This document shows, in pieces, positions 53,398 to 64,000 of a stretch of DNA of 64,000 nucleotides. The translations under genes and the position numbers were made by a program. The stretch lies in the NCBI RefSeq assembly GCF_003334255.1, contig NZ_QOWU01000015.1; one strand, 5' to 3'. The notes beneath the pieces are model-generated. The model searched no databases and was not told the origin of the DNA. It saw only the letters and a list, made by a program, of their open reading frames with translations. Origin of the DNA: Escherichia coli (lineage in GTDB: Bacteria > Pseudomonadota > Gammaproteobacteria > Enterobacterales > Enterobacteriaceae). Position 1 is the stretch's first letter. Every line of letters starts with the position of its first letter.

Positions 53398-54247
53398 TCA
53401 GGATTCCTGACGTAAATAAATAGCCCGATAACAAATACTCACCAGCACTGCACCGCCGATAATATTACCCAGCATCACCGGGAGCAGATTGGCGGTAATA
53501 AAATGGCTGACCGTCAGAGCCGGAAAATTGTCTGCGCTACTGTGCGCCAGTTGCCAGAAGGGGGGGAGGGGCGAAATGGCGAATGGCAATGGCGAACGGA
53601 ATCACAAACAAATTGGCGATACAGTGCTCAAAGCCACTGGCGACAAACAGGGTGATGGGCAAAATCATGGCGACGATTTTGTCGCATAACGAACGCCCGC
53701 AATAACTCATCCACAGCGCCAGGCAAACCATCAGATTGCACATAATGCCGAGGCTGACAGATTCAGTAAATGTATGATGCATTTTGCCCTCGGCGCAGTG
53801 TAAAACCGCGACTCCCCACATCGCGTTTTCACTCATCACCAGCCCGGAAAACCAGATTAACAAACTGAAACAGGCAATACCTGCCAGATTACCGCAGGCC
53901 ACCAGAAGTGCGTTAATCAGCCAAGTTCGCCAACTAATAACGCCCCGACTTTTTGCCATCACCGTCATTACCGACGAGGTGAACAGGCTGGTGCCGCAAA
54001 CCGCCAGCAAAATAAAGCCGAGTGTAAAGCAAAGGCCGCCCACCAGATGGGTTAATGCCTGTGAAGACGGGGCATCGGCGATAACGGAAAGGTAAAAAGT
54101 AAATCCAATCGTCATAAACACGCCAGCGGACATCGCCATTAAAAAGACCGATACTTTGCTGCGGGCAATTTTATGGGCAGCAATCCGTTCAGCGATTGCC
54201 GCTTTTCTGGCGCTCAACTGCAAGTCGAAAGAGAGTTTGTTTCTCAT
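53398..54247 (-). pseudogene. focB: formate/nitrite transporter (FNT) family channel FocB, interrupted by a frameshift at a G7 (C7 on coding strand) run
   Basis: ORFs 53537..54247 (236 aa) and 53398..53589 (63 aa) overlap in different frames and together reconstruct a ~280-aa FNT protein. Confidence 0.75.
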
Positions 54248-54268
54248 GCATACTCCTGCAAAAGCAGA

Positions 54269-56281
54269 TTACAACACCTCGCGAACCGAGATCCCCAGAC
54301 GCTGCATTCGTGACAGCAGCGTGGTGCGCTTCATCCCTAATCGTGTCGCCGCGCCACGGGGCCCGGCAACAATGCCATTGGTTTCTCGCAATACCTGAAC
54401 AATGCGCTGACGTTCTTCTTCGTCATTCTCTGGCGTCGTCGGGTGCAGCAACTGCGCCATTGAACTGCGAAGCGCTGAATCTTCATTTAGCGTCGGCAGT
54501 AAACGGCTTTGTCGGACATTAAGATGTAAATTCAGACTGTTACCGCGAGTCAGCAGTACCGCTCGCTCAATCACGTTTTCCAGCTCGCGCACGTTGCCCG
54601 GCCAGTCCCACGACATCAACTGGCGTAGCGCCTCGGTTGGGATGGCGTCAATTGCGCGATTCATATGGCGCGCCATTTTTTGCGTGAAATGTTTTGCTAA
54701 AAGAGGGATATCTTCCGGACGGTCGCGCAGCGGCGGCAATTCCAGTGGGAAGACATTCAGGCGATAAAAGAGATCGCTGCGAAACTGGCGATCTTCAACC
54801 ATTTGCCACAAATCACGGTTGGTGGCGGCAATGACTCTGACATTCACCGGGATCGTTCTACTCCCGCCGAGACACTCAATCTCCCGCTCCTGCAATACGC
54901 GCAGCAGTTTAGGCTGAAGTTCTAACGGCAGATCGCCAATTTCATCGAGAAACAACGTGCCGCCATCGGCAATTTCAAAACGACCACGATGGGTATTAAT
55001 CGCACCAGTAAACGCCCCTTTGTCATGACCGAATAACTCACTTTCCAGAAGACTGGCGGGGATGGCAGCGCAGTTGATTTTGACCAGCGGCTTGTCGTGT
55101 CGCGGGCTAAGTTGATGGATCGCTCTGGCGATCACCTCTTTGCCGGTTCCGGTTTCACCACAAATCAACACCGTACTGTCGCTCTTCGCCACAATATCTA
55201 CCTGCTGGAGCAGGTCTTCCATTGCCTGGCTTTGATAGATAATGTCACCGACGCCCAGATTTGAAAGGAGCTGCTCGCTAAGCTGGTGGTTTTCTTGCTG
55301 CAAACTTTCCTGCAAATCGGTCATGCTGCGCCAGGCATCGGCATTGCCAACGGCAATAGCGATGCGATCGGCTATGTGTTGTAGTAGCTGGCAGTTTTCC
55401 TCACTAAAGAGAGTGGAAGAGGTATGCGCCAGCAACAATGCACCCGGTGTATGGTTGCCAAAGGTAAGCGGTATCAGGAGCGCAGATTCGCAGCCGTTAG
55501 ATGCAAGTAAGAGTAATAACGGGTCGCGTTGCCAGAGAAACAGATCATCTGCACGATGCGTCAAGGTCGGTTGTCGGGTTTGTAGCGTTTGTGTCAGCAA
55601 TACACTGTCGCCAGGCATATTGCGTGGCAGACACGCACAATGTGAGGCAGAAAGATCGCTGCACCACAGGCTGAACTTCTCGTTCTTTCGATGATCGCCC
55701 AGTACCATACTGACTGAAGCCAGACCGAAAAAATGATGGATCTCACGGGCGACGTCAGCGATCAGATCGTCGAGATCAAGATGTGACAGCACTGCATTAG
55801 TAATATCAACCAGTACCCGATGATGATCGCGATCTTTCTCCAGCAAACGCAGCGCCACCTGTTGTTCTTCATCATTGAGCCATGATTGCAGAACCGGGGT
55901 GATTATGCGTGTCAGCCAGTTAAACAGTGTGCAATCCTGGGGAGTAAAACGACTGCCGTGGGTGCGAATAAAGCGTAGCTCCGCCATTCCACTACTGCCG
56001 AGAAGGACGGCGTGACGCGAATAATCGACCATCTCGCCCTGATACTCTGTTGTTGCCGTCACATCGCTGCCATCATCATGGTAGCGGTAATAGAAGTTGC
56101 TTTTGAGAACATGCAGTTCAATAAGTTGTACCGGGCTGAACGGCGGCGGCAGCGGGATGAAGGCGCGTAATAAAGACGCCTTGCCGTGTTTCTGTGCTAA
56201 CCGCTCCGCGAGCATTCCGTTTACCGCTTCAATTGTTATTCCTTGTGGCGGGGCAAACATCGCCTCGTCTGACATAGCCAT
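54269..56281 (-). CDS. hyfR: sigma-54-dependent transcriptional activator HyfR (GAF, AAA+, HTH)
   Basis: 670 aa; GAFTGA motif, Walker A GETGTGKE. Confidence 0.95.
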
Positions 56282-56310
56282 CAACAGTCCTTATTAATGA
56301 GAAATCCTTC

Positions 56311-61912: not shown

Positions 61913-61923
61913 TCATCATCTCC

Positions 61924-63363
61924 TTACTGCAACCAGGTCGCGGCGATTACGCTGGAAATCAGCGACATCACAATCAGTACAATCAACACCAGGCGCATTG
62001 ATCCTGGCAGCGGTGCGGCATCGGCGACGGCCTCGCTCGGTTTGCCAGGCACAACGCGACCAAACCAGCGAATAAACCAGGCGAAACTGGCGACCGATTC
62101 AATCATCAGCAGAATCAGGGCGGGCAGCAGGATCCAGTACTCCACTGACAACGCAAAACCGGCAACAAACAGCGGGAATTTACTGAAGAAGCCGTTGAAC
62201 GGCGGTACGCCGGTAATCGCCAGCGCTACCACGCAGAAACCCACGCCTGGCAACGGCAGGGTGTGCAATACGCCACGCAGACGCGGCAACAAGCGCGTGC
62301 CGCAGCTGTAACTCAGCGCACCTGCTACAAGGAAAAACAGGCTTTTAGCGAACGCGTGGTTGACGATGTAGGCGATGCTACCCTCCAGCGCCAGCCGCGA
62401 GCCGAAGATGGAGAGCGACAAGCCGAAGAACATCCAGCCAAGTTGAGTGATGGTCGACCAGGCCAGCAACCGCTTCATATCCTGCTGTGGCAAATACATC
62501 AGGAAGCCATAAAGAATGGTGACCAGCGCCATGACCATGCCAACGCCGCCAATCACATGCGGGATATTGCCGCCGTCGATAATGGCGCGGGCAAAAATGT
62601 AAACGCCCACTTTCACCATCGATGCGGCGTGGAGATAAGCGCTGATCGGTGTTGGCGCTTCCATTGCATCCGGTAGCCACGCTTGCATCGGTAGCTGGGC
62701 CGATTTCCCCCACGCGGCAAACAGGATGCCGCCATAAACCAGATAACGTGCGTCGCCGTGTAACTCGCTCATCGCGCTAAGCGCAAACGTTCCGGTCTGC
62801 AAAAACAGCGTGGCGGCGGCAAGATACAACCCCAACGAACCGATATGGGTGATAAGCAACGCTTTTAGTGCTGAACGCTGCGCTTTATCGCTCTGATAAT
62901 AACTGATCAACGCCCAGGAGCAGCCGCCCGTAATTTCAAAAAACAACAACTGACCGAGCAGCGTCGAGGAGAGTACCAGTCCCGCCATCGCGCCGATAAA
63001 CACCAGCAAAAATGCGTAATAACGATTCGTGCCGTTATGCGGGTGTTCGCGATTTTTATCCGTCAGATAACCCGTGGAGTAGATCGTGACCAGCAAACCG
63101 AGAAACACCACCACAAACAGAATCAGCGTACTCACGCGATCAATGACCAGGCCAAACAATGCCACATCCCCCACGTTGACCAACGTCAACGTGACGGCAA
63201 CTTTATCGGCCTGATAAAACGCGGAGATCAGCGACAACATGCACAGCGTGGTCAGCGCGGCGAACAAAACCCCCCATTCGGCGGCCCGACGTTGTGGCGA
63301 AAACGAAACGACCAGTGCGCCGATAAAAGGCAGCATTAACGTCGTCAGAGCAAGATTTTCCAT
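61924..63363 (-). CDS. hyfD: hydrogenase-4 membrane subunit HyfD (NuoL/M/N antiporter-like)
   Basis: 479 aa, polytopic. Confidence 0.93.
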   Translation of the reverse strand: MENLALTTLMLPFIGALVVSFSPQRRAAEWGVLFAALTTLCMLSLISAFYQADKVAVTLTLVNVGDVALFGLVIDRVSTLILFVVVFLGLLVTIYSTGYLTDKNREHPHNGTNRYYAFLLVFIGAMAGLVLSSTLLGQLLFFEITGGCSWALISYYQSDKAQRSALKALLITHIGSLGLYLAAATLFLQTGTFALSAMSELHGDARYLVYGGILFAAWGKSAQLPMQAWLPDAMEAPTPISAYLHAASMVKVGVYIFARAIIDGGNIPHVIGGVGMVMALVTILYGFLMYLPQQDMKRLLAWSTITQLGWMFFGLSLSIFGSRLALEGSIAYIVNHAFAKSLFFLVAGALSYSCGTRLLPRLRGVLHTLPLPGVGFCVVALAITGVPPFNGFFSKFPLFVAGFALSVEYWILLPALILLMIESVASFAWFIRWFGRVVPGKPSEAVADAAPLPGSMRLVLIVLIVMSLISSVIAATWLQ

Positions 63364-63379
63364 ATTCCGTCAGTGCTCC

Positions 63380-64000
63380 TTACAGACCGGTTAACCAGAA
63401 GACCCATGCAAGCGCAGCAAGGCTGAAGCCAAGCCAGGTCACATGGTGAATGAGTAAAAAACGCCCGCGTGCCAGCGTGTTTTCTGCGATTGAGGCCAGT
63501 ACAAAAATCAGCAAAACCTTGAGCAGCGTAACGACAAGTGAAGTCAGCAGGCAGGCGAGAGAAAGTTCTTGCGCGCGCCCAAAGGGCAGAAACAGGGCCA
63601 CAAACAGTGCTGCCATCACGACCTGTTTCAGCCCCAGCCCCCATTTCGCCAGCGCCAGCCCGGCACCGGAATATTCTGTCAGCGGGCCTTCCTGTAATTC
63701 CTGTTCTGCTTCAGCAACATCAAAGGGAATTTTTCCCATCTCAATGAAGCAGGCAAAACCACAGGCCAGTAACGCCAGTACGGTGGTTAGCGGCGAGTTC
63801 CAGCCCATCGCCAGCGTATTGCTGATCATCTCGATATGCGTGGAATCCGCTATCAGTGCCAATACCAGCAGTGAGAGAATAAGCATGGGTTCGACCAGAA
63901 TGCCGAGCGTCAACTCGCGACTGGCACCGACTCCCGCAAACGGACTTCCGGTATCCAGCCCGGAAAGAGCAAAGAAAAAACGAAACAGGGCAAGAAGATA
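63380..64000 (-). CDS. hyfC: hydrogenase-4 membrane subunit HyfC (NuoH-like), C-terminal part; runs off window
   Basis: frame open from 63913 to window end without stop. Confidence 0.9.
   Translation of the reverse strand, partial: YLLALFRFFFALSGLDTGSPFAGVGASRELTLGILVEPMLILSLLVLALIADSTHIEMISNTLAMGWNSPLTTVLALLACGFACFIEMGKIPFDVAEAEQELQEGPLTEYSGAGLALAKWGLGLKQVVMAALFVALFLPFGRAQELSLACLLTSLVVTLLKVLLIFVLASIAENTLARGRFLLIHHVTWLGFSLAALAWVFWLTGL

Follow-up and report, generated by a model that had tools for sequence, protein, structure and literature searches.

Piecemeal decay of the hydrogenase-4 operon hyf-focB in an Escherichia coli strain and its relatives

Introduction

When two genes of one operon are each broken by a single base in a short homopolymer, does this record the decay of a pathway or an error of sequencing? 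The question is raised by a 64,000-nt stretch of the Escherichia coli chromosome (contig NZ_QOWU01000015.1, here the window) which runs from hcaR to hyfC. Between positions 53398 and 64000 its minus strand carries focB, hyfR, hyfJ, hyfI, hyfH, hyfG, hyfF, hyfE, hyfD and the 3' part of hyfC, which is most of the hyfABCDEFGHIJR-focB operon for hydrogenase-4 (Hyd-4), also called formate hydrogenlyase-2 (FHL-2), and both hyfI and focB are frameshifted. The best explanation, to which we assign a probability of about 0.88, is that of a poorly expressed operon under relaxed selection whose broken alleles are shuffled between strains by recombination.

In K-12 the hyf-focB genes are described as a 12-cistron operon (Andrews et al. 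1997, as cited). Native expression of hyf in E. coli is poor and an important accessory gene is missing (PMC7384014), and hyf has been termed 'a silent operon' (Self et al. 2004, cited in PMC7384014). The missing gene is hyfK, whose product is a maturation protease; it has no copy in the E. coli operon (PMC7654741). Fifteen engineered K-12 strains carrying strong promoters or HycE C-terminal fusions displayed zero Hyd-4 activity, which was put down to 'additional, unknown, biosynthetic problems' (PMC7654741), and disruption of Hyd-4 genes leaves H2 production unchanged. Strains of phylogroup B2 have no hyf (Touchon et al. 2009, PMC2617782 Table 5), and a loss of the operon has been reported for the F/G/B2 lineage (PMC6896753).

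Two frameshifts in one operon

The reading frames of the window were surveyed by projecting onto it the gene coordinates given by the Prokaryotic Genome Annotation Pipeline (PGAP) for strain JP538 (NZ_AP025180.1) and translating each gene. JP538 is collinear with the window at 99.98% identity, with zero indels and 11 distinct single-base differences over 64 kb. A coding sequence (CDS) was scored as open if its length is divisible by 3 and it contains no internal stop and ends in a terminal stop. By this measure 53 of the 55 complete CDS are open and only focB and hyfI are broken; the complete CDS of the remaining 53 kb hold no further frameshift. Two genes, hcaR and hyfC, are cut by the window ends, of which hyfC is open as far as it extends. 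The probability that both lesions fall in the hyf operon by chance is approximately 0.024-0.029 by gene count and 0.027 by length, and approximately 0.003 if a frameshift in hyfB of JP538, described below, is added to the two hits.

Synteny, sequence identity and matches to family models all identify the locus as the hyf-focB operon of E. coli. K-12 MG1655 matches positions 51180-64000 in a single collinear alignment with 98.9% identity and 3 indels, and the gene order hyfC-D-E-F-G-H-I-J-R-focB at the site by yfgO/bepA is that of K-12, on which the K-12 and JP538 annotations agree. Family models are matched by the first FocB fragment and by HyfH, HyfG matches HycE, and hyfE is present, which encodes the FHL-2-specific membrane subunit that distinguishes hyf from hyc (bioRxiv 10.1101/563510).

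In hyfI, which encodes the Hyd-4 small subunit, one A is missing from GATCATAAAATC compared with K-12, leaving AAA. The window HyfI follows HycG (7z0s_G) up to residues ~103-107, after which it is out of frame and meets a stop at codon 174. Cys105, Cys111 and Cys141, which include the cysteines of the GACG and GCPP motifs and which we take from knowledge of the family to be cluster ligands of NuoB-type small subunits, are out of frame or lost, and the protein does not retain all of the proximal [4Fe-4S] cysteine ligands that mark the small subunit of a functional hydrogenase. Re-insertion of one A in silico yields a 252-aa HyfI with 2 differences from K-12. The second hyfI open reading frame (ORF) of 99 aa had zero matches in an NCBIfam search, and its identity comes instead from this one-base repair. 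It would follow that FHL-2 cannot be made in the source strain, because no functional small subunit is encoded.

The formate channel gene focB carries an extra C within CCCCTCCCCCCTT compared with K-12, which results in a run of seven. Its first ORF (53537-54247) matches positions 1-230 of the NCBIfam FocB model NF007261 with 522 bits (cutoff 499), and its second (53398-53589) matches positions 228-282; the alignment of the first ORF to FocA likewise ends at approximately residue 230. FocB is thus left without its last ~53 residues and, judging from the six-helix fold of the family, has probably lost its last transmembrane segment. Removal of one C in silico yields a 282-aa FocB with 3 differences from K-12. 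Since a one-base repair restores both HyfI and FocB to full length, the two frameshifts are simple lesions in otherwise well-kept genes, and PGAP calls both genes 'frameshifted' in JP538.

An earlier reading of the window from its letters and ORFs, hereafter the sequence-only reading, had named the Hyd-4 small subunit and the formate channel of the operon as the only two broken genes and had placed both frameshifts in short homopolymers. The survey of the 55 complete CDS and the alignment to K-12 (A4→A3 in hyfI, C6→C7 in focB) agree with this. Its further statement that all other genes in the window are intact holds for the frames of the 53 other complete CDS but not for the contents of hyfG and hyfH, which are open and yet have lost conserved residues in frame (Table 1).

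Table 1. Genes and lesions of the hyf-focB operon in the window
Feature	Position	Strand	State
focB pseudogene (formate channel)	53398-54247	minus	850 nt; 2 internal stops in ancestral frame; frameshift at codon ~226-230 of 282
C7 run (C6 in K-12)	53560-53566	minus	+1 insertion breaking focB; alignment to K-12
hyfR (sigma-54 activator)	54269-56281	minus	open
hyfJ	56311-56724	minus	open
hyfI pseudogene (Hyd-4 small subunit, NuoB/HycG family)	56717-57474	minus	758 nt; 2 internal stops; frameshift after Lys103 of 252
AAA run (AAAA in intact alleles)	57166-57168	minus	1-bp deletion breaking hyfI; alignment to K-12
hyfH (2x[4Fe-4S] ferredoxin subunit)	57471-58010	minus	open; 179 aa vs 181 aa; NF006076 357 bits, cutoff 270
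hyfH 6-bp in-frame deletion site	57867-57888	minus	12-residue motif reduced to 10; CxxCxxCxxxCP to CxxCxxCxCP
hyfG ([NiFe] large subunit)	58020-59687	minus	open 555-aa ORF of K-12 length; 48-bp in-frame deletion as in K-12
hyfG 48-bp deletion junction	58518-58541	minus	missing segment YSPVGPLIRGSGFARD; long allele flanked by 10-bp direct repeat GCCCGTGATT
hyfF	59677-61257	minus	open; in other strains stop at codon 210 or 1-bp deletion
hyfE (subunit specific to FHL-2)	61262-61912	minus	open; 651 nt
hyfD	61924-63363	minus	open; broken in many other strains
hyfC, 3' part (cut by window end)	63380-64000	minus	open; 207 codons without stop

The frameshifts are inherited alleles

That both lesions are 1-bp length changes in homopolymers, and that a GATC motif adjoins the hyfI site, would fit homopolymer miscalls of this particular assembly, the genes being intact in the living strain. 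Systematic errors are possible at GATC-adjacent sites on some sequencing platforms. However, both alleles recur in many independent assemblies. The exact 81-mer around the hyfI deletion is present in 19 of 4000 genomes; at least 3981 are without the window's exact allele, and most of those listed differ from it by the extra base alone. Thousands of genomes in which the surrounding sequence is unchanged have A4. The exact 81-mer around the focB C7 run is present in 177 of 4297 genomes and therefore has at least 177 carriers, among them the enterotoxigenic E. coli (ETEC) strain H10407, whose genome was capillary-sequenced. Over the 4.3-kb stretch which holds both lesions, 7 other complete genomes are ~100% identical to the window; their sources are pigs, humans and seawater, and they come from different countries.

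The alleles are moreover bound to specific haplotypes. A 1449-bp query (56352-57800) returned as its top 19 matches the same 19 genomes that carry the hyfI deletion, 16 of them at 100.0% identity, 2 at 99.9% and 1 at 99.6%, and the next-best genome is at 99.1%. The deletion thus corresponds one-to-one with a haplotype which is present in all carriers and in no other genome, as descent would produce and a platform error would not. Miscalls would be private to one assembly or unlinked to haplotype and scattered over it, and the 53 other window genes are without frameshift. Both genes rather present themselves as unitary pseudogenes, in that the frame is broken relative to intact orthologues, both parts are recognisable, a one-base repair works and the lesion is shared on a haplotype. 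An assembly artefact, which the sequence-only reading had offered as its second option, is rejected on the strength of the independent assemblies, the haplotype linkage and the PGAP flags in JP538, and we regard it as extremely improbable.

Independent recurrence of the hyfI deletion was at first suspected, as 11 of the 19 carriers are <99% identical to the window over the 4.3 kb and the hyfI deletion and the hyfH 6-bp deletion occur in all four gametic combinations. It was rejected because the 1449-bp block, at ≥99.6% identity, is common to all 19 carriers and is found in no other genome, which points to one hyfI mutation that has been moved by recombination.

Inherited lesions might still leave the genes working if the focB C tract were a phase-variable switch or if the frameshifts were bypassed by ribosomal or transcriptional slippage. 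The tract is mutable, as C5, C6 and C7 alleles all occur within the species and the same run carries a -1 allele in ECC-1470 and L16-131; its length, however, differs solely between distinct haplotypes. The tract is also short, and its place at codon ~226 of 282 is not near the 5' end or a promoter; C7 is stable on a 2.5-kb block with one difference from H10407 as well as in the 4.3-kb stretch shared with the 7 genomes. No slippery heptamer is present at the hyfI site (CAU AAA UCU) and none is visible at the focB site; most orthologues are in frame, and the site is not conserved as a frameshift. Neither gene therefore has the marks of a phase-variable locus or of programmed frameshifting. Further lesions in the operon imply that rescue of a single gene would not restore the enzyme, and function of the genes as they stand is thus highly improbable.

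In-frame deletions in the ferredoxin and large subunits

Compared with HycF (7z0s_F), HyfH of the window has a 2-residue gap inside CxxCxxCxxxCP, the first ferredoxin motif. This 6-bp deletion allele is found in 762 of 4292 genomes, the longer form being that of K-12 and 82% of genomes. The deletion carries no PGAP flag, and the loss of spacing in the motif suggests that it abolishes function.

The hyfG gene has the length of its K-12 counterpart, yet among 17 hyf operon sequences that were aligned to K-12 a longer allele, with 48 extra bases and a product of 571 aa, is present in 11. By a rough proportion from evenly spread and sampled genomes, it is found in approximately half of hyf-bearing strains. 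The 16 extra residues, which contain the conserved GPxxRGSG, align without gaps to FSNVGPMVRASGHARD of HycE, and MbhL, Nqo4 and the 49-kDa subunit of complex I have an equivalent GPxxRxSG segment to which they also align; it is this gap-free alignment which identifies the short hyfG as a deletion of a universally conserved segment. The large subunit of a functional hydrogenase has GPxxRxSG, whereas HyfG of both the window and K-12 has a 16-residue gap there. Both in-frame deletions, in hyfG and in hyfH, arose between short direct repeats. From the conservation of the segment, it is tentatively suggested that hyfG of K-12 and the window is not wild type but a 16-residue deletion allele, which would make it a candidate cause of the Hyd-4 inactivity of K-12. 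Of all that the locus offers, only this deletion, which K-12 has too, merits being followed up.

Decay of the operon across E. coli

Beyond the window end, hyfB is disrupted in both close relatives of the window that were examined, JP538 and WP7-S17-ESBL-04, by a 1-bp deletion (TTTCCGCAC→TTTCGCAC) which is flagged by PGAP in JP538. The site (JP538 locus position 32466) is ~1.8 kb past the window end and does not lie in a long homopolymer. In WP7-S17-ESBL-04, which has the window's haplotype, an IS1A element (locus 8411-9657) stands in place of focB and the 3' part of hyfR, which takes the decay one stage further within the lineage to which the window belongs.

Across the species, ~1125 of 5426 complete E. 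coli genomes (~21%) have no match to the locus, in agreement with the published B2 absence (PMC2617782) and F/G/B2 loss (PMC6896753). Of the ~4293 hyf-bearing genomes, 1255 match the hyfB deletion exactly and 2492 the intact allele, with ~550 left unresolved by nearby single nucleotide polymorphisms (SNPs), so that at least 29% of hyf carriers have the deletion; among the complete non-K-12 operons aligned it is present in 12 of 16. A second hyfI frameshift (GGCGGTATTTT→GGCGGATTTT), seen in a mussel strain named 'ExPEC' (locus 8948-9030) at approximately window position 57127, is much commoner than that of the window, with 680 of 4025 genomes (at least 17%), and in some of its carriers, including OkiPb01716, hyfB is intact.

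A spread sample of 10 hyf-bearing genomes was taken at even steps down the ranked list of matches, and 7 of them have at least one hyf pseudogene flagged by PGAP. The three without a flag are AJ1, strain 550 and 2009C-4687; AJ1 has the hyfG deletion, which leaves only strain 550 and 2009C-4687 with an operon free of every scored lesion. When the 17 operons were aligned to K-12, at least 15 different lesions came to light which disable a gene or are suspected of doing so, spread over hyfB, hyfC, hyfD, hyfF, hyfH, hyfI, hyfR and focB. These include a 1-bp deletion and a stop at codon 156 in hyfB, a 1-bp deletion in hyfC, two 1-bp deletions, a 208-bp deletion and a 216-bp in-frame deletion in hyfD, a stop at codon 210 and a 1-bp deletion in hyfF, three different 1-bp deletions and a stop at codon 35 in hyfI, +1 and -1 changes at one C run in focB, and the IS1 replacement across hyfR-focB. 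None of the adjacent genes (uraA to yfgO, bcp) is flagged in the same loci (p ~0.005 by length).

In the fetched flanks the sole pseudogene outside hyf is ypfH (esterase; locus 22437-23134), flagged as frameshifted in the O121 strain RM8352.

Comparison of hyf integrity across strains, which the sequence-only reading had proposed, thus uncovered many independent lesions elsewhere. Relaxed selection on, or inactivation of, FHL-2 in the strain, its first option, finds support, and the decay goes deeper and reaches further than could be seen from the sequence alone; it is neither specific to this strain nor limited to homopolymers.

A mosaic of broken segments

The operon of the window is composed of segments of different ancestry. 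Positions 57931-60274, comprising hyfG with its 48-bp deletion, are exactly those of K-12. Positions 56352-58385, spanning hyfJ-I-H with the hyfI deletion, are those of the lineage of the bovine strain 13E0780 except for the hyfH 6-bp deletion, and positions 53281-55850, covering focB with its C7 run and the 3' two-thirds of hyfR, show one difference from ETEC H10407. As the lesions sit on segments of different ancestry, homologous recombination must have joined already-broken pieces in one operon. Damaged segments have come together from different donors, and selection has not removed them.

Carriers of the hyfB deletion share a local haplotype around the site which is distinct from that of K-12. 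The proposal that this deletion predates all haplotype divergence was considered and set aside, as recombination prevents a simple ordering of events.

Between hscA and ppx (11096-43066) hardly any SNPs separate the window from K-12, whereas from ppk through hyf (43071-64000), and again at iscS-yfhR, the two are diverged. Per-gene synonymous divergence (dS) from ppk to hyf is ~0.02-0.04. Mosaicism with respect to K-12 is therefore regional and reaches beyond the operon.

Relaxed selection or selection for loss

Between the window lineage and K-12 the hyf genes differ by 102 synonymous and 42 non-synonymous substitutions, with a ratio of non-synonymous to synonymous rates (omega) of 0.13, compared with 89 synonymous and 15 non-synonymous substitutions and an omega of 0.05 in 41 flanking genes of the window (Fisher p = 0.009). 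Among haplotype-private substitutions, the ratio of non-synonymous to synonymous changes (N:S) is 65:57 in lineages with a broken operon and 30:105 in two clean ones (p = 3e-7).

Two single-base slippage events in short homopolymers broke hyfI and focB, and it is proposed that purifying selection on hyf is relaxed because the operon is barely expressed, has no maturation protease gene of its own and is redundant with hyc, the operon for formate hydrogenlyase-1 (FHL-1). FHL-1 would carry the activity, and under relaxed selection loss-of-function mutations would not be removed and could accumulate and spread neutrally. The decay would then reflect a recent relaxation, or a relaxation working against recombination with intact alleles, and not an ancient death of the operon.

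Several points weigh against this explanation. The contrast in private N:S is confounded, and inflated, by branch length, since short branches are well known to show an excess of non-synonymous changes and recent change will always seem less constrained. Omega between pairs of hyf haplotypes is 0.12-0.18 and far below 1, which implies that most of the haplotype divergence built up under constraint; either the operon still worked until a fairly recent time or recombination keeps bringing in intact segments. An operon long dead and evolving neutrally was considered as well, and is not supported by these values, which are not close to 1. The hyfB gene itself lies outside the window, and the loss of function ascribed to the hyfG and hyfH deletions is predicted from conservation alone. 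Some K-12 studies have reported hyf-dependent H2 production under particular conditions, and the operon may be useful somewhere. Finally, the hyfB frameshift could be as frequent as it is because loss was selected for and not because it is neutral.

This last point leads to the possibility that inactivation of hyf is advantageous, for example because it spares nickel, membrane space or the cost of synthesis or prevents interference with FHL-1, and that broken alleles were spread by positive selection. The frequency of the single hyfB deletion, in at least 29% of carriers and across diverged haplotypes, is in line with this, as are the deletion of the whole operon in ~21% of genomes (see also PMC2617782) and the movement of broken blocks between backgrounds by recombination. 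Yet a barely expressed operon (PMC7384014, PMC7654741) costs little, and breaking it would gain little. Once a first knockout is in place further lesions, of which there are 4-5 per haplotype, add no benefit, whereas neutral decay predicts such lesions, and the clade structure of phylogroups A and B1 can explain the frequencies. Adaptive loss is possible for the first hit but leaves four or five lesions per operon unexplained, and is thus considered unlikely compared with relaxed selection combined with the shuffling of broken alleles.

Comparison with related systems

The window's operon is highly reminiscent of that of K-12 in its location between bcp and yfgO, in gene order, in its 98.9% identity and in the hyfG block including the 48-bp deletion. 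It differs in that all twelve frames are open in K-12, whereas in the window hyfI and focB are frameshifted and hyfH lacks two residues of its iron-sulfur motif; hyfB is in addition frameshifted in the two close relatives. The absence of hyf from phylogroup B2 is a loss of the same pathway in the same species, except that there the genes are gone and here they are present and disabled lesion by lesion.

The FHL-2 systems of Pectobacterium atrosepticum (PMC7384014, PMC7654741) and Trabulsiella guamensis (bioRxiv 10.1101/563510) comprise a homologous hyf set with five membrane subunits and the Hyd-4 catalytic module. These are expressed, encode HyfK and produce H2, whereas E. coli has no hyfK and expresses hyf poorly, and the strain studied here has no intact small-subunit gene. 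In E. coli FHL-1 (hyc; cryo-electron microscopy structure 7Z0S), HycE, HycF and HycG are the paralogues of HyfG, HyfH and HyfI (E = 1.6e-279, 2e-44 and 4e-44, respectively). The Hyc proteins keep what is deleted or out of frame in their Hyf counterparts here, namely the GPxxRxSG segment of 16 aa, the spacing CxxCxxCxxxCP and the small subunit's C-terminal half.

With the frameshifts already annotated in RefSeq for near-identical genomes, and with both the silence of hyf and its absence from B2 published, the finding of the two broken genes is genuine but ordinary. A search of the literature, with subscription journals outside its reach, returned the B2 absence and the 'silent operon' and no earlier report of hyf pseudogenes in E. 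coli; it likewise returned no mention of the hyfG deletion. Neither how far hyf has decayed across E. coli nor, in particular, the loss of 16 residues from the K-12 HyfG reference came up in the literature that could be searched.

For the source strain the losses are of little consequence, as FHL-2 is barely expressed in E. coli and missing from whole phylogroups. For annotation, the hyfI and focB frameshifts are real alleles which should be kept as pseudogenes and not 'corrected'. The use of E. coli as a model for Hyd-4 and FHL-2 is affected more, since a large share of strains either have no operon or carry one with frameshifts or internal deletions, and even the reference strain K-12 has a deletion in the catalytic subunit; natural strains with a clean operon are better models. 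If the hyfG deletion abolishes Hyd-4 assembly or activity, two decades without Hyd-4 activity in K-12 would be explained, and FHL-2 could be made by a minority of E. coli only, for which 2009C-4687 and strain 550 are candidates.

Other features of the window

The trmJ-iscR spacer contains two tandem copies of a 91-bp unit with a repetitive extragenic palindromic (REP) element (5689-5873); they overlap with a match to Rfam naRNA4 (5751-5822). In K-12 this spacer measures 451 bp, 91 bp more than the 360 bp of the window, which indicates that the copy number of the REP unit varies. The sseB-sseA spacer (14023-14828) holds paralogous repeats of ~195 bp that are 82% identical and correspond to the known small RNA genes ryfA and IS128 and the small toxin gene timP. 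The lowest G+C content of the window (0.41) is found at 38001-40000, around yfgH, yfgG, a hypothetical ORF of 50 aa and the region upstream of pdeF.

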